Of a DNA stretch of 64,000 bases, positions 5,937 through 17,881 are shown in pieces (within the stretch, counting starts at the first letter, position 1; every line of letters begins with the position of its first letter). The stretch comes from Acidimicrobiales bacterium (GTDB lineage Bacteria > Actinomycetota > Acidimicrobiia > Acidimicrobiales > Bin134). The translations under genes were made by a program, and so were the position numbers. The stretch covers positions 2,765,103-2,829,102 of the forward strand of contig OY760141.1 in the NCBI GenBank assembly GCA_963663255.1. The letters run 5' to 3'. Below the pieces are notes generated by a model. It made no database searches and was not told the origin of the DNA. It saw nothing but the letters and a program-made list of their open reading frames with translations.

Positions 5937-6755
5937 ATGGGCGGCGAGAAATGGGCCCAGCGGCTCACCCGCGGCGCGATCGCGGGCTTCGCGGGCGGTG
6001 CCGCGTCTGCACTGATCATGTGGATCGCAGTGGAGCCCTCGATCACGCAGGCCATCAACCTAGAGAATGCCGCTGGTGCCGACCACTCGCACGGCAGCGC
6101 CGGCGCTGGCGAGAACGGCGATGGCGAACTCCTTTCGCGAACAACGCAGATGATCGGTGGGACGATCACCGCAATCGTGGTGGGCGTGTTTTTCGGAGTC
6201 ATATTCACCGTTGTCTACTACCGAATCAGGCACCGTCTGTCGGGCAGGACCGATCTCGGGCGATCATTGAGTCTGGCCGCCTTAGCGTTTGCCGTGATCG
6301 GATTGCTCCCCGCCCTGAAGGTGCCCGCCAACCCTCCGGGCGTCGGAGATCCGGGCACGGTCGACGACCGAACGCTCACCTATCTGGCGATCATCCTCTG
6401 TGGGCTATTCCTCGTTTGGGCAAGCTTCGCCGCTTCGCTAGCCGTACACCAGCGGACCGACCGCGCCGAGCTGAGGTGGATCACCGCCGCCGGGGTAGCC
6501 GTGGTCGGCGGGGCCGCGATCCTCTTATTGGCCCCAAGCGGCACCGTGGAGATCCCGGCGGCCATTCCGGCGTCGCTGGTGTGGGAATTCCGGATCGGCT
6601 CACTCGGCCAGATCGCCGGTCAGTGGCTCGGTATCGGGCTGACCTGCGGCGTCCTGGCCCACCGCAGGTCCCTGGGATTGGAGGCCCGCCCCTCACCACC
6701 CTGGACACCCGATCAAGACCCGTCGCTGACTAATTCCGCAGTGGGTGAAGACTGA
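5937..6755 (+). CDS. cbtA: Cobalt transporter subunit CbtA
   Basis: 272 aa, multi-TM, His-rich loop (ADHSHGSAG) after the first TM. Immediately downstream of cbtB. Confidence 0.75.
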   Translation: MGGEKWAQRLTRGAIAGFAGGAASALIMWIAVEPSITQAINLENAAGADHSHGSAGAGENGDGELLSRTTQMIGGTITAIVVGVFFGVIFTVVYYRIRHRLSGRTDLGRSLSLAALAFAVIGLLPALKVPANPPGVGDPGTVDDRTLTYLAIILCGLFLVWASFAASLAVHQRTDRAELRWITAAGVAVVGGAAILLLAPSGTVEIPAAIPASLVWEFRIGSLGQIAGQWLGIGLTCGVLAHRRSLGLEARPSPPWTPDQDPSLTNSAVGED

Positions 6756-6798: not shown

Positions 6799-7187
6799 GG
6801 GGCTGATCGGTTTCGACGTTGGGACCGGGGGCTGCGCTGTGCGACCCGAGTTGCTCAGACTCGCAAAACGGGGCAACCAACTAAGCGGCAACGACCGTGA
6901 ACTTCTCGCAGCCTGATCTTTCTGGCTTAGAGAAGCACCGCGACCGGTAACGGCACGCGGGGCCGGTCCACCGCAGCCCGGCAACAGAAGCGGTGGAGAC
7001 AGTAGGGACAGACCACTGACGGCGGGAAAGACCGCTGACCCCGGGGAACAGACCCGGTGGCGGGCCCCCTAGCGGGGGCCAATCGACCCGGCGACGCAGT
7101 AGCCATCGACGCCGCACACCGGGAATGGTCGTATCACAGACAGGCACCGCCCAGCGGACGGGGGTTCGATTCCCCCCAGCTCCACTC
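6799..7187 (+). ncRNA. ssrA: tmRNA (SsrA)
   Basis: The 5' GGGGCTGATCGGTTTCGAC start (6799-6805 GGGGCTG) pairs with 3' CAGCTCC (7177-7183), giving the G3:U alanine identity pair. T-arm GGGGG-TTCGATT-CCCCC, discriminator A7184; CCA is not fully encoded. Internal tag frame 6863-6916 reads GCA AAA CGG ... CTT CTC GCA GCC TGA = (A)KRGNQLSGNDRELLAA*. The exact resume codon is not determined. Confidence 0.9.
7165..7185. repeat. Left copy of 21-bp direct repeat (putative attL) within the ssrA 3' end
   Basis: TTCGATTCCCCCCAGCTCCAC; an identical 21-mer recurs at 18023-18043. Confidence 0.75.
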
Positions 7188-7190
7188 CGA

Positions 7191-7224
7191 TTACGCTATT
7201 GAGTAATTTTACTCAATAGCGTAA
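7191..7224. repeat. Perfect AT-rich palindrome (16-bp arms, 2-nt centre) at the island's left border
   Basis: TTACGCTATTGAGTAA-tt-TTACTCAATAGCGTAA. Lies 6 nt after the left direct repeat and 10 nt upstream of a TATACT -10-like hexamer (7235-7240). Confidence 0.9.
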
Positions 7225-7231
7225 TTCAACC

Positions 7232-8503
7232 GTGTATACTGCGGATATGGCCGAATTTCGGCGTTCGCAAGTCGACACCCTCATCAGCCGACTGTCGGAG
7301 CCTCCGCAGCGGCTCATCGCTATCTTCGGCCCACGCCAGACCGGGAAGACCACCGCAGCACGCCAAGCGCTCGCGCTCACCGAACAAGGGCACCGCTACG
7401 AAGCGATCGACGCAGCTGAGCACAGCACAGAGCCATGGCCAGCCTCCTCGGAGACCGACTATGCAACTTTCGGACCTGTTCGCAGAGATGACCGGTGGCT
7501 GGTGGAGGTCTGGGAGCACAGCAGGCACCAGGCCTGGACCTCGCAGCAGGGATTCGTCTTGGTCCTCGACGAGATCCAGAAGATCGATCAGTGGTCGGAA
7601 GTGGTCAAAGGCCTCTGGGACGCCGACCGCGCCAGCGGCTGTCCCCTGCATGTGGTGATTCTCGGCTCGGCGCCGCTCTTGATGCAGGCGGGACTAAGCG
7701 AGAGTCTCGCTGGCCGGTTCGAGCCGATCCATATCACGCACTGGTCCTATCCGGAGATGGCCGACGCCTTCGGCTTCAGCCTGGACGACTATGTGTATTT
7801 CGGGGGATATCCGGGGGCTGTTCCGCTAACCGATGATCTGGAGCGTTGGAGCTCCTATATCCGCAGCGCCCTAGTCGAGCCCAACATCGAACGTGATGTC
7901 CTGTCAATGACCAGAGTCGACAAGCCTGCCCTGCTCAAGCGGCTCTTCGAAGTCGGAGCGCTCTATTCCGGCCAAATCCTGTCGTTCAACAAGATGCTCG
8001 GCCAACTGCAAGACGCAGGCAACACCACAACCTTGACGAGGTATCTCGACTTGCTTTCCCAGGCGGGGCTGCTAATAGGACTCACCAAGCACACCGAGCG
8101 TCCGGTATCAGCCAGGGCCTCGATACCAAAGCTGAATGTGCTCAACACCGCTTTGATGTCGGCCGCCTCCGGCTACTCCCTCGAACAGGCCCGAGACGAC
8201 CGCGCGTTCTGGGGCCGACTGGTCGAGAGCGCAGTTGGGGCGCACCTGGTCAACACAGCCTCGCCGAGCACCACGGTCAAGTACTGGAGAGACGGCAACC
8301 ACGAAGTGGACTTCGTCCTCCAGAGGGGCCCGCACACAGTGGGAGTCGAGGTCAAAAGCGGCCAGGCCCTGACCAGCCACAGGGGTCTCATGGAATTCGA
8401 GCGCCGGTTCCAACCCCGGGCAACCGTCATCGTCGGCGACGCTGGCGTGCCCCTCCCCGAGTTCTTGTCCGAACCCGCCGACTACTGGTTCGAGCCAACA
8501 TGA
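7232..8503 (+). CDS. AAA+ ATPase of the AAA_14 + DUF4143 (COG1373) type with C-terminal PD-(D/E)xK-like motif
   Basis: 423 aa. Walker A FGPRQTGKTT, Walker B VLVLDEIQ, SESLAGRFEPIHITHWSYPEM (family-typical), C-terminal HEVDFVLQ...VGVEVKSG. Alternative start ATG 7247. The stop overlaps the next start (ATGA 8500-8503). Confidence 0.8.
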   Translation: MYTADMAEFRRSQVDTLISRLSEPPQRLIAIFGPRQTGKTTAARQALALTEQGHRYEAIDAAEHSTEPWPASSETDYATFGPVRRDDRWLVEVWEHSRHQAWTSQQGFVLVLDEIQKIDQWSEVVKGLWDADRASGCPLHVVILGSAPLLMQAGLSESLAGRFEPIHITHWSYPEMADAFGFSLDDYVYFGGYPGAVPLTDDLERWSSYIRSALVEPNIERDVLSMTRVDKPALLKRLFEVGALYSGQILSFNKMLGQLQDAGNTTTLTRYLDLLSQAGLLIGLTKHTERPVSARASIPKLNVLNTALMSAASGYSLEQARDDRAFWGRLVESAVGAHLVNTASPSTTVKYWRDGNHEVDFVLQRGPHTVGVEVKSGQALTSHRGLMEFERRFQPRATVIVGDAGVPLPEFLSEPADYWFEPT

Positions 8504-11500
8504 CCAGCCCGGTTGCCCGCACCTGCACCGAACTGGTTGTAGATCAGGACAGTGGCCTCATCCTTACCGGGTCGCAGCCGATGAACGCATTCGATCTTAG
8601 GCGCGCATACGTGCTCCTGGGCGACGCCGGTTCTGGAAAGACAACTGAATTCAAACGGGAGGCGGAAGCACTCGGCGATGCTGCGGAACTCTTGAGCGCC
8701 CGGAATTTCATCACTCTGGATGTGGACTCCCATGCGAAGTGGCAAGAGAAGATCCTCTTTATTGACGGCCTTGACGAGATGCGGGCAGGCACATCCGATT
8801 CGCTAACACCACTAGATCAGATCCGTAATCGGCTCGACCGGCTCGGTCAACCCTGGTTCCGGATTTCATGCCGAGAGGCAGACTGGCTCGGCAACAACGA
8901 CCGCCAGAGCCTGGCCGAAGTTTCTCCCGATTCACAGATCACCGTACTGCGGCTCGACCCCCTCGATGACGATGGAATCAGAGCACTGTTGACCTCACTT
9001 GATCTCCCCGGCGATGTGGGGAAATTCATCGACCAGGCGAGACAACAAGGCCTCGGAGCCATACTGCACAACCCGCAAACACTGAAGCTGCTCGCCCAAG
9101 CAGTGGAACAGGGAGGCAAGTGGCCCGACAGCCGGCAGGAGACCTTCGAGTTGGCCTGCCAAAAGATGGCATCAGAAAGGAACGAGGACCACCTGGAGAG
9201 AGCTGATGACATTTCTGCGGATGCCGTCATGGATGCCGCCGGCTATCTGTGTGTGTTGCAGTTGTTTGCCGGCACAGAGGGGTACTCGTTGAGCCGCCTA
9301 CTCGACAGCGCCTCGTTCCCATCAGTTGAAGAGATACAGAATCCACCGACCCAACTTCCTGACAGCAGTCTGAGGCAAGCACTGTCCACCAGGCTGTTCA
9401 CCGGAGTGGTTGAGCGACGAGTCAGCCCAATCCACCGTCACATCGCCGAGTTCCTGGCCGGCCGGTACCTGGCCAAGCTGATCGAGAACGGGCTGCCCGT
9501 CGAGAGAGTCATGGCGTTGATGACCAGCCCCAGCGACCAAAAGGTTGTGACAGTCCTCCGGGGTCTGTCTGCTTGGCTAGCCGTGCACTCCCCCACCGCC
9601 CGTCGACGACTGATTGATCTTGATCCCGTCGGTGTCGGCCTGTACGGCGATATCAAGGACCTACGGCCCGACGACAAGAGACTGATCTTGGAGTCGCTGG
9701 CCGCGTTCGCCGAGCAGGGGCCCCTCTTCGGCCATGAGAGAACTGATGATCGCGGCGGTTGGCATATGGGTTCCACCGCCCAAGCATTTCGTTCCCTCGC
9801 CTCGGCCGAAATGGTTCCCGCCATCAACGAATTGATCGCCAAGCCAGTCGCCGGGTCCTGCGACAGCCGGGTTTTGGAGTTCCTCCTCGACGTGCTGTCC
9901 GTAGCTGAAGACCCAGAATTGGACTCGTTGCGCGGATTGGCATCTGACTTGGAGCCAATCGTCCGCGACCCTACCCGCCCGGAAAAGATCAAAACGCCAG
10001 CTTTGGATGCATTCCTTCGGATCGCCCCATCGGGCGAGGCTACGACGAACACACTGATTCGACTTCTTGATGACATCAAGTCTGGTGTGGTGCTCGATCC
10101 TGATGATCAGCTTCGTGGGACTCTGCTAAGGAACCTCTACCCACCTTCGCTGAGCCCTGTGGAGCTATGGCATTACGCCATGCCTCGCAATCAGCACAAC
10201 CTCTACGGCCGCTATGACAGTTTCTTGGACTACGACCTGTTGACAAGAACCTCAAGCCAACAGATAGCCGGATTGCTGGATGCCCTAGGGGACAATGACA
10301 CCGACCTGCGCACCGAACTCCGGGAGTCCATGCTCTATGACTTGCCGCTCAAACTGCTGGCCCGAGGCTTGGAGGAATGCGGGGAAGAGATCGATCTGCC
10401 CCGCCTTTATGGCTGGCTCAGCATTGTCGCTGATCCCCTCGACAGTTTTCATTGGGAAGGCCGAGACATTCGCCCTGTCCAAACATGGCTAGAGGACCAT
10501 CCCGACATCCAGGAGGCCATTTTCTTGGCTTGGCTCAGACACTGTGATCAAACCGACTCCGATTCGCTCAATTCGATTGAGTTCTGCGATGTGCTCCTGC
10601 GAAGCTCGCCTCCCTCAGACTTCGGGCTGTGGTGCCTCGAAGCAGCGGCTGAGCTCGCAGACGCTGAACCGTCTGTAGCGCAGGACCTCTTGACACAGTC
10701 CTACCGCCTGTTGCAAGGCCACAGGATCAACGAGGGCCTCTCACTAGACATCCTGCGATCCCGAACGCGTGGGCACGGCGGCCTTGAGCAGCGACTTGAA
10801 GAACTCTGCACACCACGCCCCAAACCCGAACTGAGCGAAGCTCAGCAGCGACGACATGCCCTTCTAGAAGAGCGAAGGGAAAAAGAGCGCGGACAGCAAC
10901 TGGAGCGTGAGTCAGACCTCCGGTCGCAAGTGGCCGAACTGAGAGAGAACCGATTTTTCCCTCGTGGATTGCACTCCCTAGCTCAGGTGTATTTCGGCAA
11001 GATTGGGGGAACCAGCCAGGACGCTACTCCCGACCAGCGAATTAGCGAGTTCATTGGTGGCGACCCCGATCTAGCTGAGGCGGTCATGACGGCGTTGCGG
11101 CGAGCGGTCTATCGGGACGATTTACCCGAGGCCGACGAGACGATCTCCTTGAATTTGGACTCCAAATTCTCATTCCTGGCCTTCCCTGTGTTGGCCAGCT
11201 TGGAACTGCTCTACAACGACGACCCGGCACAATTGGACGAACTCGACGACACGCTCAAGAGCAACGCCCTCGCCACCCACTACTGCGTCTCGCCTGTCTT
11301 AAACGCCTATCCCGGTCGCCCGACGCCTTGGTTCGCACGAATGCTGGAACATGACCATGAATTGGTAGTTGAAGTCCTATTCGGGTGCGCCCACTCCGCA
11401 ATGAGAGACGGAGGCGCATTCCCACCAGGCCTCAGAGATCTAGACAACATCGAACATACCCACCCCGCCCTGGCATTCGAGCTGACTACAAGGCTTCTCG

Positions 11501-12666
11501 CCTCATTCCCCGTCCGCGCTCGGCAAGCACAAATCCCTCTACTCGACCGACTGCTGGAGAAGTTGCTCAAGGCAGGCAAGCCGGAACTTGAAGAACTGGT
11601 CGAAGAAAAACTGGCCATGAAGAGCATGGACATCGCTCAGCAGATTCGGTGGCTTACGGTCGGAGCGCTGCTGTCGCCTGAGCGGCATTTGTCGGCGCTT
11701 GAAGAAAACGCCGACAAGAGCCAAACGAGGGTGCGGCATTTCGCCGGGTTCATCTGCGGTCTCTCTCGCAAGGAGTGGTTCTCCGATTCACTACTGGTCA
11801 AGAACCTATGTCCCCAAGCAGTCGCCGCGTTCATAAGGCTCATGGGAAGTTCCTTTGCCCCCATTGAGATCGTAGGCAGGGGGCCCGTGTCCGGGGGCCC
11901 CGAGCTGAGTGCTTCCTGGCGGATAGAAGACCTGATCTTGCTTCTCAGCTCCAATTCCAGCCCTGAGGCCAATAGGGCACTACGGGACCTAATCAACGAT
12001 CCCCCACTCCAACTGTGGAAAGACCAACTCAGATGGGCAGAAGAGCGACAGCGCGTACTGCTTCGCGACGCCACCTATAGCCACCCCAGCGTTGAACAGG
12101 TCCAACGCACACTCGATAACGGCTTGCCGGCCAACGCGACTGACTTGGCTGCGTTACTGAACGATCACCTCGATTACATCTCACGAGACATCCGGGGTAG
12201 CAACAGCAACATCTGGCGTCAGTTCTGGATGGATGACCGAGATAGCGAACCGAGAGAACCAAAGCACGAAGAATCCTGCCGAGATGCACTTCTTACCCTT
12301 CTGAAGGAGCGACTACCCACAGCAGTCGACTCAGCTCCGGAGCGCCGCTATGCCTCCGATACGAGAGCGGACATCTGCGTGAGCTATGGCGGGTTCAATG
12401 TACCTATTGAGATCAAGAAGGACTGCCACCGCGACCTTTGGAGCGCCCTCCAGGAGCAGCTCGTCGAGCAATACACCACCGACCCTGCAACCTCCGGGCA
12501 CGGCATATACCTCGTGCTTTGGACCGGCGGCGACGAGATCAGTCGAAGGCCGGACGGCAATCGTCCAACTACCCCTGATGAGTTGAGAGAGCTGCTGGAA
12601 GGCGATCTGACCCCGGAACAAACTGGAAAAATCTCCGTCAGGGTCCTCGACGTCACCAAACCCTAA
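8500..12666 (+). CDS. STAND/NACHT-like P-loop NTPase with long helical C-terminal region and terminal PD-(D/E)xK-like nuclease motif
   Basis: 1388 aa. Walker A LLGDAGSGKTT (nt 8620-8646) and Walker B ILFIDGLDEM (nt 8752-8778) lie within the first 95 aa. These are followed by NACHT-like VLRLDPLDDDGIRALL, then ~1100 aa with no motif I recognise. The last ~140 aa read ESCRDALLTLLKERL...RADICVSYGGFNVPIEIKKD (D1291, E1304, K1306; nt 12370-12417). Confidence 0.6.
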   Translation: MTSPVARTCTELVVDQDSGLILTGSQPMNAFDLRRAYVLLGDAGSGKTTEFKREAEALGDAAELLSARNFITLDVDSHAKWQEKILFIDGLDEMRAGTSDSLTPLDQIRNRLDRLGQPWFRISCREADWLGNNDRQSLAEVSPDSQITVLRLDPLDDDGIRALLTSLDLPGDVGKFIDQARQQGLGAILHNPQTLKLLAQAVEQGGKWPDSRQETFELACQKMASERNEDHLERADDISADAVMDAAGYLCVLQLFAGTEGYSLSRLLDSASFPSVEEIQNPPTQLPDSSLRQALSTRLFTGVVERRVSPIHRHIAEFLAGRYLAKLIENGLPVERVMALMTSPSDQKVVTVLRGLSAWLAVHSPTARRRLIDLDPVGVGLYGDIKDLRPDDKRLILESLAAFAEQGPLFGHERTDDRGGWHMGSTAQAFRSLASAEMVPAINELIAKPVAGSCDSRVLEFLLDVLSVAEDPELDSLRGLASDLEPIVRDPTRPEKIKTPALDAFLRIAPSGEATTNTLIRLLDDIKSGVVLDPDDQLRGTLLRNLYPPSLSPVELWHYAMPRNQHNLYGRYDSFLDYDLLTRTSSQQIAGLLDALGDNDTDLRTELRESMLYDLPLKLLARGLEECGEEIDLPRLYGWLSIVADPLDSFHWEGRDIRPVQTWLEDHPDIQEAIFLAWLRHCDQTDSDSLNSIEFCDVLLRSSPPSDFGLWCLEAAAELADAEPSVAQDLLTQSYRLLQGHRINEGLSLDILRSRTRGHGGLEQRLEELCTPRPKPELSEAQQRRHALLEERREKERGQQLERESDLRSQVAELRENRFFPRGLHSLAQVYFGKIGGTSQDATPDQRISEFIGGDPDLAEAVMTALRRAVYRDDLPEADETISLNLDSKFSFLAFPVLASLELLYNDDPAQLDELDDTLKSNALATHYCVSPVLNAYPGRPTPWFARMLEHDHELVVEVLFGCAHSAMRDGGAFPPGLRDLDNIEHTHPALAFELTTRLLASFPVRARQAQIPLLDRLLEKLLKAGKPELEELVEEKLAMKSMDIAQQIRWLTVGALLSPERHLSALEENADKSQTRVRHFAGFICGLSRKEWFSDSLLVKNLCPQAVAAFIRLMGSSFAPIEIVGRGPVSGGPELSASWRIEDLILLLSSNSSPEANRALRDLINDPPLQLWKDQLRWAEERQRVLLRDATYSHPSVEQVQRTLDNGLPANATDLAALLNDHLDYISRDIRGSNSNIWRQFWMDDRDSEPREPKHEESCRDALLTLLKERLPTAVDSAPERRYASDTRADICVSYGGFNVPIEIKKDCHRDLWSALQEQLVEQYTTDPATSGHGIYLVLWTGGDEISRRPDGNRPTTPDELRELLEGDLTPEQTGKISVRVLDVTKP

Positions 12667-12748: not shown

Positions 12749-15700
12749 GTGCCGGATGCCGCTCCCCCAGGAGGCGTAAGAGACCAACGCCTCTTGGAGG
12801 GGTTGTCTCGCTGCGTCTCGGTTGACCTCGAAGTGTCAAAAGTGACGGAGCGCATCCACTCTTTCGCGGGAGTGCGCCTCGACACCGAAGAGTCTTTCGT
12901 CTACCCGTCGGCGGGCCTTGACCGTCCTCAGGCGTTGGCTGAGCTGGATGCTCTCGCCGATGGCACAGACTTCCTGGTGGGCCACAACTTCATCGAATTC
13001 GATATGCGCCATTTGCAAGCCGCCAATCCTGGTTTGCGCTTGCTGGAGATGCCGGTGGTGGACACTCTTTGGCTGAATCCCCTGGCCTTTCCCCGGAACC
13101 CGTATCACCATCTCGTCAAGCACTATCAGGAGGGCCAGCTCATTACCGGGCGCAAGAACGACCCGGAGCAAGACGCAAAGATCGCTCTGGAGGTTTTCGC
13201 CGACCAACAGAAGAGTCTGCTGGAGGCACCCTCAGACTTGCTTGTCGCCTGGCACTGGCTGACTGGAGGGCAGCACGGCTCCGGTTTTGATCTGGTCTTC
13301 CGGTGTTTGCGCGGTTCGCCTAGGCCTTCGGATGTCGAGGCCTGTGAGGCGATCTACGCTCGTGTTGACGGCATCTGCTGTCGTACTCACGCGCGCCAGG
13401 CCGCTGATTCCGCTGGCGAGCATGGCTGGTCGCTTGCCTATGCGTTGGCGTGGCTGTGGGTGTCGGGGGGCAATTCGGTTATGCCGCCTTGGGTTCGGCA
13501 TCAATTTCCCGACGCCGGAAAGTTGGTGCGGCGCCTGCGTGACAGCCGGTGCGAAGACCGAGGTTGCCCTTGGTGCCAAGAGCGCCACAACGCACGCAAA
13601 GAGCTGAAGCGCCTGTTCGGCTTCGACGAATTCAGGCCGGAGCCGGCCGGCGAAGATGGGCGCCCGTTGCAGCAGGCCATCGTTGAGGCGGCGATGGGGG
13701 GCGACCATGTCTTGGGGATCTTGCCGACGGGTACGGGCAAGTCGCTGTGCTACCAGATACCGGCGCTGTCGCGATACGACAAGACCGGGGCGGTGACCGT
13801 GGTCATCTCGCCGTTGGTGGCTCTGATGGCCGACCAGGTGACCGGGCTCGAGGCCCACGGCATCACCTCCTGCGTCACTATCAACGGCTTGTTGTCGATG
13901 CCCGAGCGCTCCGAGGCGTTGGAGAAGCTGAGGCTTGGTGACGCCGCTATCGTGTTGGTCTCCCCTGAGCAGCTTCGCAGTGTTTCGTTTCGACGTTCCT
14001 TGGATCAGCGTGAGATCGGTTCCTGGGTGCTGGACGAGGCCCACTGCTTGTCAAAGTGGGGCCACGACTTCCGCCCTGATTATCGCTATGTGGGGCGCTA
14101 CATCCGCGAGCGCGCAGAAGGCGGTGTGGTGCCCCCGGTGATGTGCTTGACGGCGACGGCCAAGCCCGGGGTCAAAGAGGAGATAGTCGAGTACTTCGCC
14201 GAACAACTCGGCGTCGAGATGCGGGTGTTCGACGGAGGCAGCGAGCGCGCCAACCTCGAGTTCGTGGTGGTGGAGACAACCACTTCCAAGAAGTACAGCG
14301 ACATCTACGAGATCTTGTCCAACCATCTTCCGCCAGACGGGAACGGCGGCGCGATTGTGTACTGCGCGACTCAACGGCGGACCGAGGAGATCGCGAACTT
14401 CCTCAGGGAATTAGGGTTCTCCGCTGATCGCTTCCATGCCGGGTTGCAGCCGGAGGACAAGAAGACGGTCCAGCGCCGCTTCATCGAAGGTGAGCTGAGG
14501 GCGATTGCGGCCACCAACGCTTTTGGAATGGGCATCGACAAGCCCGATGTGCGACTGGTGATACACGCCGACATTCCATCGTCGCTGGAGAACTATCTGC
14601 AAGAGGCGGGTCGGGCCGGCCGGGACCAGAAACAGGCTCACTGTGTGCTGCTGTTCACGAGAAACGACGTGGAGCGGCAGTTCGGCATGTCGGCACGGTC
14701 CCGGCTCACTCGACGCGAGATCAATGGGGTGCTGAAGGCCCTGCGCCGGCTGAGCAGACGCAACAATAACGACGAAGTCGTTGCCACCATGGGCGAGATC
14801 CTGGTCAACGACGAAGACACCGACTTCAGGCGGGATTCTGCCACCGACGACACGCGGGGGCGCACGGCGCTGGCCTGGCTTGAGGAGGCAGAGCTGCTCA
14901 GCCGGGAGGAGAACCGCGTCAATATCTTCCCGTCGTCGTTGCGGGTGAGCTCGGTGGAGGAGGCAAAGGAGAAGCTGGAGTCCAAAGGGCTTGACGAACT
15001 GGCGCGCGGCCGGCTGCTGGCCGTCGTGGAGGCGCTGATCGGTGCCGACCCCGACGAGGGGATCTCCACCGACATGCTCATGGCCACCGCCGGCCTCAGC
15101 TCCGACCAAGTTAGGGGCGCGCTCTACGACTTGGAGAGATGCGGTATCGCCAGCAACGACACCGCGCTGACCGCCTTCGTCCACCTGGGCGTTGCCAACA
15201 GCTCGAAGCGGCGGCTGGTCGAGGCAGCGGGGGCAGAAGAGGAGCTCTTAAGCCTCATGCGGGAGATGGCCCCAGATATGGGAATCGGCGATGAGGCGCC
15301 GCTGAATCTGCGGGTTGCCTGCCAGCGGATCAAAGACGCCGGCCACAACCATGTCCGGCCCGAGTACATGGCCCGTCTTCTGCAAGGGATCGCCGGCGAC
15401 GGCCGCGGCGAGGGCATTGGAGGCGGCAGCATCACAGTGAGAAAGCTCGATGCCGAAAGCGTTCGAATAACACTGAAGCGCGAATGGCATTCCGTAGTGG
15501 GGATGGCGCAGCGTCGGCGAGCCGGCGCCGCCCGCCTCCTCGATCACCTTCTGTCATGTGCGCCGAAGGGCAAGCGCGGCACCGACCTGCTGGCGGAAAC
15601 CACCTTGGGAAAGCTGACCGAGGCCGTGGAGGGAGACTTGACTCTCGCCGGGGAGGCCAAGGACTTGCGCAGGCTGGTGGACCGCTCGCTGGTGTGGCTG

Positions 15701-17881: not shown

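Follow-up and report, generated by a model that had tools for sequence, protein, structure and literature searches.

Organization of the gene and its product

The window analysed here is a 64,000-nucleotide (nt) stretch of contig OY760141.1 from an Acidimicrobiales bacterium. Its subject is a single gene whose product joins a DnaQ-like DEDD exonuclease-like domain, a RecQ-family motor core of helicase superfamily 2 (SF2) and a UvrD/PcrA/Rep-like motor core of superfamily 1 (SF1) in one chain of amino acids (aa; Table 1). Translation of the open reading frame (ORF) is uninterrupted, with zero internal stops. Residue numbers are those of the initial annotation, which was made from the DNA letters, and are counted from the GTG that opens the longest frame. 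The start is uncertain by 45 nt: the public gene call for the same sequence (protein P0001, 1695 aa) begins 15 codons later, at the TTG at 12794. The sole Shine-Dalgarno-like AGGAGG near the start (12768-12773) lies 20 nt upstream of this TTG, and a promoter and terminator scan around the gene yields nothing exceeding shuffled background.

That one chain carries all three parts, as the initial annotation had proposed, is borne out by curated profiles, an AlphaFold2 fold and a profile of diverse family members. The motif strings on which the proposal was built all occur in the translation at the residues given for them: VDLE (D26, E28), HNFIEFD (H79-D85) and NDPEQDA (N137-D142) in the exonuclease-like domain; C268, C273, C276 and H280 behind it; PTGTGKS, DEAH, CLTATA, GMGIDKPDVRLVIH and QEAGRAGRD in the RecQ part; and GPGSGKT, VDEYQD, GDDDQNIY, NYRS, TAHRAKGLEFD and VSMTRAR in the UvrD part. 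All are kept in 118 full-length homologues and in 28 homologues at 34-61% identity. These 28 family members form the diverse alignment referred to below, and 99 homologues form the close set. The three-part architecture is almost certainly genuine, a single gene for a multi-module DNA enzyme. That the frame is instead an assembly chimera, or three adjacent genes fused by sequencing errors, is vanishingly improbable, because hundreds of independent assemblies contain the same uninterrupted gene of ~1700 aa, as do complete long-read genomes and isolate plasmids, and the junction regions are conserved among them. Misassembly, which the initial annotation had named as one of the findings that would overturn it, is thereby ruled out.

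Table 1. Features of the fusion gene and of the island that carries it, in window coordinates
Feature	Position	Strand	Remarks
Whole ORF, DEDD exonuclease-like/RecQ/UvrD fusion	12749..17881	+	1710 aa from GTG 12749; stop codon 17879-17881
DnaQ-like DEDD exonuclease-like domain	12806..13243	+	~aa 20-165; AlphaFold2 model, Foldseek against PDB, profile against PDB, hhalign against DnaQ, column counts
All-helical region	13244..13549	+	~aa 166-267; model secondary structure, conservation; no family
Cys3(-His) cluster	13550..13588	+	C268, C273, C276, H280; just before RecQ motif 0
RecQ-family SF2 motor core, motifs 0 and I-VI	13601..14698	+	~aa 285-650; Walker A K331; DEAH D429-H432
Family-specific linker	14699..16018	+	~aa 651-1090, ~440 aa; no Pfam family
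UvrD/PcrA/Rep-like SF1 motor core, motifs Q, I-VI	16019..17443	+	~aa 1091-1565; Walker A K1121; motif II D1238-E1239
C-terminal beta-rich tail	17444..17878	+	~aa 1566-1710; AlphaFold2 model
tmRNA gene ssrA, integration target of the island	6799..7187	+	ARAGORN; Rfam RF00023, 65.8 bits
Left 21-nt direct repeat, TTCGATTCCCCCCAGCTCCAC	7165..7185	.	tmRNA gene 3' end
AAA_14/DUF4143 ATPase, island gene 1	7232..8503	+	PADLOC candidate single-gene defence PDC-S01, PDLC04791, 528.6 bits; Pfam
NACHT-type protein, island gene 2	8500..12666	+	1388 aa; NCBIfam EruA NF058535, 899.7 bits, below cut-off 1000
Right 21-nt direct repeat, TTCGATTCCCCCCAGCTCCAC	18023..18043	.	Perfect copy, 142 nt past helicase stop codon; right end of island

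The RecQ and UvrD motor cores

Both motor cores are recognized by curated models of their superfamilies, and neither is recognized by the models of the classical enzymes. The RecQ core matches Pfam DEAD (aa 305-475, E 1.2e-31) and Helicase_C (aa 523-626, E 4.9e-23) and scores 311 bits against the cut-off of 219.8 for the NCBIfam model recQ_fam (TIGR00614), the match ending at model position 342 of 470. RecQ equivalog models stay below their cut-offs (TIGR01389, 336.5 bits against 640.2). Its top sequence matches in the PDB are RecQ, RECQ5, BLM, RECQ1 and WRN, with E-values from 1e-64 to 1e-51. Pfam finds zero matches to RQC and HRDC in the protein, and the tetracysteine that would follow RecQ motif VI is absent from the sequence; the RecQ part therefore reads as a motor core only, devoid of the RQC zinc/winged-helix and HRDC modules. 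The RecQ domain assigned by the initial annotation thus stands as a motor core, and the RQC and HRDC modules are lacking.

The UvrD core matches UvrD-helicase (E 2.4e-38, 132.8 bits) and AAA_19 (E 1.5e-22, 80.7 bits) over aa 1095-1282, and UvrD_C (46.1 bits, E 5.8e-12) and UvrD_C_2 (35.2 bits) over aa 1509-1562, all of them Pfam matches that exceed the family cut-offs. The equivalog models of UvrD, PcrA, Rep and helicase IV give at best 168, 165, 130 and 122 bits, where the cut-offs are 965, 911, 951 and 543. The UvrD part carries every SF1 motif but, judged by these scores, is orthologous to none of the four. Among the 28 diverse members there is no variation at K331 and K1121, in either Walker B box or in motifs III-VI of the two cores, and both motors are therefore predicted to be active.

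The DEDD exonuclease-like domain

The N-terminal region was modelled with AlphaFold2 (aa 16-300, 99 sequences) at a mean predicted local distance difference test score (pLDDT) of 87.7 and a predicted template modelling score (pTM) of 0.85. In Foldseek searches of the PDB, the best matches of this model are DinG of S. aureus (9ii8, 8zef), a Cas2-linked DnaQ domain of Streptococcus thermophilus, the TREX1 homologue Plex9.1 and the CBASS exonuclease Cap18, all with a probability of 1.0, E-values of 1.6e-3 to 6e-2 and a TM-score of ~0.53 over targets of ~175 residues. Retroviral integrase cores rank below the exonucleases, with lower probability; such matches are expected, because the RNase H-like fold is shared. 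A profile built from the diverse members leads to the same family, as DEDD exonucleases make up all its PDB matches at E <= 0.1 (Plex9.1-type, 5.5e-4; DinG, second-best, 9.3e-4; Cas2-DEDDh, 3.6e-3). The proofreading domains of T7 and Pol II are also among the matches of this profile. Other searches with the same region are silent or uninformative. Pfam gives zero matches to aa 1-290 even at E = 10, and leaves the N-terminal domain of all 28 diverse members unmatched at E up to 0.01; phmmer finds nothing for the N-terminus among PDB sequences; a narrow profile of close homologues finds chance matches only in the PDB; and a second homologue search with the N-terminus alone retrieves close fragments only and zero distant architectures.

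By its modelled fold and its presumed metal ligands, the domain belongs to the DEDD superfamily. The four metal-ligand carboxylates, D26, E28, D85 and D142, are invariant in the diverse homologues (28/28) and align to the ExoI (DxE), ExoII (D) and ExoIII (D) motifs of DnaQ and DinG. The fifth residue, by which DEDDh (H-x4-D) and DEDDy (Y-x3-D) enzymes are told apart, is as aligned neither His nor Tyr: position 137 is Asn in 25 of the 28 diverse homologues and Q, P or S in the others (His or Tyr in 0/28). N137 aligns with the ExoIII His, and D142 with the ExoIII Asp, of E. coli DnaQ and of DinG; the hhalign comparison, in which the DnaQ sequence was entered by hand, is weak (E 0.12). The atypical third exonuclease motif, pointed out at first from the single sequence, is hereby confirmed as a feature of the family. 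Several residues around the site are conserved as well: H79, D105 and K124 are invariant in the diverse members, H120 is present in 27 and Y126 in 25 of the 28, and the segment PYHxLVKxY (aa 118-126) is conserved.

The helical region, Cys cluster, linker and tail

The helical region, the linker and the tail lack a family assignment. An all-helical region, in which C211 is invariant in both the close and the diverse set, leads from the exonuclease-like domain to a cluster that had been read as Cys3-His. Its cysteines are real, C268, C273 and C276 being invariant in the 99 close and 28 diverse homologues, whereas H280 is kept in only 16 of the 28. The cluster is a putative zinc knuckle.

Pfam is silent on the linker (~aa 650-1090) and on the tail (~aa 1565-1710) even at E = 10, so the description of the ~145-aa tail as lacking a family assignment is borne out. 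An exhaustive search of 1.84 billion cluster representatives finds the linker in 876 clusters (50% identity) at E <= 1e-3. Among the best 150 matches, 46 are 1670-1911 aa long with the linker at ~residues 600-1130, and the rest are shorter and fragment-like; going by these lengths and positions, the linker is a marker of the fusion architecture and of essentially nothing else. Against the PDB, the linker profile gives a weak DtxR-type winged-helix match only (E 0.025), and the linker is probably rich in several winged-helix modules.

The tail (aa 1556-1710) is modelled as a beta-rich fold with a pLDDT of 87.2. Its Foldseek matches are all weak: 3k2y (E 0.07, probability 0.87), the HIRAN domains of Rad5 (0.12) and HLTF (0.19), and HamB, the HIRAN-like matches covering an E range of 0.07-0.5. 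Sequence profiles of the tail, of the close and then of the diverse set, give chance matches or none in the PDB, and no HIRAN match. Pfam HIRAN has zero matches in the query protein (E up to 10) and in the 28 diverse members, and an hhalign comparison of the tail with HLTF HIRAN is not significant (E 0.14).

Size and spread of the family

In the first homologue search, 120 clusters were retrieved, with identities of 66-94% and identical Pfam content; 116 of them are 1650-1816 aa long and four are shorter. The full-length homologues analysed show the same range of identity. The architecture is retained down to ~30% linker identity. Relatives occur in at least 508 of 185,579 species-level genomes. 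In PLSDB, 25 plasmid records contain the linker, 17 of them covering at least 80% of it, and some of the hosts are Thiothrix fructosivorans, Cereibacter sphaeroides, Cereibacter azotoformans, Rhizobium ruizarguesonis, Rhizobium leguminosarum, Paracoccus versutus, Sulfitobacter, Allochromatium vinosum and Nostoc. Phage genomes yield 0 matches in 50,697, and IMG/VR yields 4 loci among 2.9 million contigs. The combination of domains had been called very uncommon; the genomes, linker clusters and plasmid records counted here speak against this, and tracing the full-length architecture across genomes, as had been suggested, reveals a large, multi-phylum family. Every annotated plasmid copy is named 'RecQ family ATP-dependent DNA helicase'. 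No paper describing a DEDD-RecQ-UvrD fusion was found in the literature searched, which likewise held nothing relevant on helicases of sponge symbionts. The family is thus a large one that carries only a generic RecQ-family annotation and is described in no paper found.

The best 80 loci come from about ten phyla, and the phyla and classes represented are Acidimicrobiia, Chloroflexota, Nitrospirota, Poribacteria, Latescibacterota, Gemmatimonadota, Acidobacteriota, Binatia and Alpha-/Betaproteobacteria. In 64 of 74 loci, the closest copy from another phylum is more similar than the most distant copy from the same phylum, and the maximum identity between phyla reaches 89.4% over >1400 residues, between locus L067 (Latescibacterota) and locus L071 (Gemmatimonadota; L numbers denote the loci compared). 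Such high cross-phylum identity suggests transfer within one habitat. The record names among the best 80 loci include the sponge-linked Poriferisocius, Poriferisodalis and Poribacteria, and the bin series of many host genomes is one that we take to come from sponge symbionts; many carrier genomes are apparently sponge symbionts. Truncated copies are also seen, with many N-terminal fragments of 260-480 aa on long contigs (proteins P0121-P0240) and a broken frame at no fewer than two loci, L006 and L022 included. These fragments and broken frames reflect either frequent pseudogenisation or frameshift errors of long reads.

The tmRNA island in the window

In the window, the fusion gene is the last of three genes in an island of ~10.9 kb, behind a PDC-S01 ATPase and an EruA-like NACHT protein. 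The island is an insertion at the 3' end of the transfer-messenger RNA (tmRNA) gene, bounded by a direct repeat and without an integrase of its own; no recombinase or integrase family matched any of the three island genes. Beyond the right repeat lie housekeeping genes, which encode a short-chain dehydrogenase (SDR), CorC, YbeY and PhoH. The whole arrangement, with the same pair of repeats, recurs at L007 (marine group Sva0996, Acidimicrobiia) and at L030. At L003 the helicase gene stands directly next to the tmRNA gene and the other two island genes are absent, so that the helicase on the one hand and the PDC-S01/NACHT pair on the other are modules that can occur apart. At this last locus, from a related member of the Acidimicrobiales (L003 7446-7852), a second copy of the terminal 15 nt of the tmRNA gene, CCTCCAGCTCCACCA, lies two bases downstream of the first, which looks like an attachment-site scar. 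An empty tmRNA site, sought in metagenomes with two patterns, was not found.

The PDC-S01 and NACHT genes share 4 nt, at the stop of the former and the start of the latter, an arrangement suggestive of an operon. The NACHT protein scores 191 bits against the HyoA model and contains no Pfam domain at E <= 0.001; no paper naming EruA or HyoA as antiphage proteins was found in the literature searched. Between the end of the tmRNA gene and the PDC-S01 start codon lies a perfect AT-rich palindrome of 17+17 nt (7190-7225; ATTACGCTATTGAGTAA tt TTACTCAATAGCGTAAT), in surroundings of 63% G+C. Operator, terminator and recombination site are all conceivable roles for it.

Genomic neighbourhood of the homologues

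Elsewhere the gene has no constant company. In a clustering of the ORFs of 83 loci, no flanking family is common to more than 8 loci, and the 144 immediate neighbours that were scanned fall into 128 Pfam families, the commonest being MGMT (n = 5), whose recurrence reflects synteny among related genomes. Neither set contains a conserved partner gene, and no integrase or transposase is among the 25 commonest neighbour families listed. Compared with the 82 other loci, the window shows nucleotide homology only as far as the boundaries of the ORF (12797-12980 and 17415-17890), with three exceptions among close relatives. In 81 upstream regions, three classes of LexA box have 0 matches and the gamma-proteobacterial pattern has one. 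The lifestyle of the gene is very likely solitary, mobile and accessory.

Where neighbours match defence models, these include AriA/GajA-type OLD ATPases, SoFic, PDC-S01, a UG29 reverse transcriptase, MADS mad3 and a second DpdF-like RecQ. At L001 and L002, PIN, MNT/HEPN and an OLD-type ATPase adjoin the gene, and plasmid contexts hold HipA, Doc/MazE and YoeB/Phd toxin-antitoxin pairs, Cas6/WYL and H-NS. Some loci have MGMT, DnaG primase or a canonical RecQ as neighbours.

Two Chloroflexota loci appeared to carry a 1.1-kb insertion, which proved to be a second RecQ-like gene, of ~996 aa, directly downstream of the fusion helicase (L020 13206-16196, L068 7802-10792). The RecQ cores of its product and of the fusion protein share 40% identity. 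Strong matches to PADLOC DpdF, and matches to Pfam RQC and HRDC, come from two of the scanned neighbours, which are probably these same genes.

Comparison with known systems

Enzymes already known to combine helicase and nuclease functions include WRN, DinG, RecBCD/AddAB, Cas3, Hna and Nhi. In WRN, the human Werner syndrome protein, and in its orthologues, an N-terminal DEDD-superfamily 3'-5' exonuclease is likewise followed by a RecQ-family motor in one chain; WRN matches the RecQ core at E ~6e-52 among PDB sequences. However, WRN has a canonical DEDDy site together with RQC and HRDC and lacks a second motor, whereas the present protein has Asn at the fifth residue and neither RQC nor HRDC. 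The fusion very probably arose independently of WRN. DinG of S. aureus and Bacillus subtilis, the best match by fold, is a bacterial exonuclease-helicase fusion with the exonuclease at its N-terminus as well, but it keeps the ExoIII His, its motor is XPD-like (a 5'-3' family) instead of RecQ-like, and it has a single motor, without UvrD core or tail. RecBCD and AddAB/AdnAB also bring two helicase motors and nuclease activity together in one machine that acts on DNA ends. In contrast to the protein described here, they are multi-subunit, both of their motors belong to SF1 and their nucleases are of the RecB-type PD-(D/E)xK kind; the motors of RecBCD have opposite polarity, while here an SF2 and an SF1 motor, both of 3'-5' families, share one chain with a DEDD domain.

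Parts of the protein resemble components of defence systems. GajB of Gabija, which is UvrD-like, reportedly responds to DNA ends, and the UvrD core scores 180.7 bits against its PADLOC model. GajB, however, partners the OLD-family nuclease GajA, and the similarity here is that of a generic SF1 core only; GajA is absent from the island in the window, and GajA/AriA-type proteins occur in 2-3 of 144 neighbours of homologues. DpdF, from the Dpd defence cluster for 7-deazaguanine DNA modification, and PsyrT/RqlH, the RecQ-like toxin of a toxin-antitoxin pair, are the best PADLOC matches of the RecQ core (383 and 300 bits, aa 278-668). These matches span only the first 373 of 610 model positions in DpdF and the first 376 of 689 in PsyrT. 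Neither dpd genes nor the PsyrA/RqlI partner are present, and there is no conserved neighbouring gene. RqlH, of the clade described by Ordonez et al., contains a RecQ zinc domain and a ComF-like C-domain (PMC3378886); the fusion protein lacks both and has another C-terminal half. The tail, lastly, has its best, weak fold matches among the HIRAN-type beta-barrels of HLTF and Rad5, but it does so without Pfam, profile or significant hhalign support. HIRAN domains bind 3'-OH DNA ends beside a motor.

Proposed function and alternatives

The best explanation overall, adopted tentatively and at close to an even chance, is that the protein is a stand-alone enzyme of nucleic-acid surveillance or of defence, with 3' DNA ends as its site of action. 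It would work alone, without a partner gene. Foreign or aberrant DNA would be caught at a free 3' end or at a fork by the exonuclease-type domain, perhaps with help from the tail. Unwinding or remodelling would fall to the two motors, which both come from families with 3'->5' movement on single strands, and the DEDD site would trim the 3' end or merely sense it. Defence in particular is a tentative possibility, favoured because of the location on an island and on plasmids, the company of PDC-S01 and EruA-like genes, the patchy distribution, the truncated copies, the near-absence of SOS boxes, the defence-type neighbours of homologues elsewhere and the lack of any match in the phage genomes searched. 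Several observations weigh against this proposal. No PADLOC system model spans the whole protein, the DpdF, PsyrT and GajB matches being domain-level only. Most immediate neighbours are ordinary metabolic or housekeeping genes, and guilt by association is modest, with ~12 of 144 neighbours matching defence models by a rough count. Conservation along the full length of the aligned sequences is unusually high for a defence gene. The HIRAN-like fold of the tail is a weak hint and a lead only, given weak model scores without sequence-profile support, the change from His to Asn may mean that the nuclease is inactive, and the role itself is one that we infer. It is quite possible, under any of the roles, that the exonuclease-type domain has no catalytic activity left and serves only to bind DNA, at 3' ends or in a metal-dependent manner: where DEDDh enzymes have their general-base His, most diverse members have Asn, and none has His or Tyr. 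Set against this, four carboxylates that stay invariant across members at such low identity would be unusual for a dead site, and a substitute for the lost base could come from H120, K124 and Y126, which lie close by and are near-invariant.

Surveillance and defence must also be weighed against service to the host or to the carrier DNA. The protein may be an accessory enzyme of DNA repair or of the replication fork, in which a WRN-like exonuclease-RecQ unit is joined to a UvrD/Srs2-like anti-recombinase; its substrates would be stalled forks, D-loops or R-loops in the chromosome of the host, and it would have been spread by transfer for a benefit in a particular habitat, many of the host genomes being apparent sponge symbionts. 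Rather unlikely when taken by itself, a repair role is the main rival of a defence role and nearly as likely. Classical members of both motor families act in repair and recombination, the order of exonuclease and RecQ mirrors that of the exonuclease-helicases WRN and DinG, purifying selection is strong along the whole length, and the neighbours are mostly housekeeping genes, with MGMT, DnaG primase and a canonical RecQ at some loci. Repair fits less easily with a patchy distribution, carriage on islands and plasmids, evident cross-phylum transfer, frequent truncated copies, LexA boxes that are near-absent upstream and, in the window, an island shared with two antiphage-type genes. A function in the replication, transfer, integration or stabilisation of the plasmid or island, not of the host, is improbable. 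The gene itself is the unit of nucleotide homology, it resides on plasmids and in a tmRNA island without integrase, its N-terminal RNase H-like fold is also used by integrases, and at L001, L019, L075/L045 and L016/L002 it lies between imperfect repeats of host-gene 3' ends with no recombinase between them. However, the domain motifs and best matches are those of DnaQ-type exonucleases and not of DDE transposases, the host plasmids carry replication and transfer genes of their own, no terminal inverted repeats stand above shuffled background, and there are no circular or stand-alone contigs, the short ones being ordinary chromosomal fragments. In addition, repeats of any kind are found across the gene in 10/64 cases against 12/64 and 7/64 in flanking blocks that do not span it, and repeats of 40 nt or more in 6/64 against 3/64 and 3/64. 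Very improbable is a one-gene integrative element, a reading prompted by the repeat-flanked loci just named and by the integrase-less tmRNA island. The protein would direct insertion of the gene that encodes it into host-gene 3' ends, with no classical integrase or transposase involved, and the insertion would create duplications of 20-137 bp. The parts that might serve such an element are the RNase H-fold metal site, two opposed-strand motors and a 3'-end-binding domain, and the reading stays a long shot because control repeats are about as frequent in the non-spanning blocks.

Whichever role applies, the design is an unexplored one, joining SF2 RecQ and SF1 UvrD motors in one chain with a DEDD site that systematically lacks the catalytic His, and two of its large modules, the linker and the tail, match no described family. 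How two motors of 3'-5' families cooperate within one polypeptide is a mechanistic question in its own right, and a tractable one, as the family is present in cultured Cereibacter sphaeroides, Rhizobium, Paracoccus and Thiothrix. Cross-phylum identity of up to 89% points to strong habitat-specific selection. A defence protein of this kind would add a widespread single-gene system, and a repair factor would be a bacterial analogue of WRN joined to an activity of the Srs2/UvrD type.

Loci flanked by direct repeats

Direct repeats flanking the gene were considered as a general signature of insertion and rejected, as they are not enriched over the control blocks. At individual loci of unrelated genomes imperfect direct repeats occur. 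The copies lie at 2579-2726 and 8102-8249 in L001; at 6514-6634, 7647-7751 and 13196-13300 in L019; at 7483-7556 and 13166-13239 in L075; at 6179-6294 and 13156-13271 in L045; at 7612-7709 and 13741-13838 in L016; and at 8715-8851 and 15224-15360 in L002. These repeats, of 74-137 nt and 87-98% identity, enclose the helicase gene alone or together with one or two small genes. They copy the 3' part of a neighbouring host gene, which is an NHL-repeat gene in L001 and the gene for O6-methylguanine methyltransferase in L016, and the differences between the two copies in L001 look mostly synonymous.

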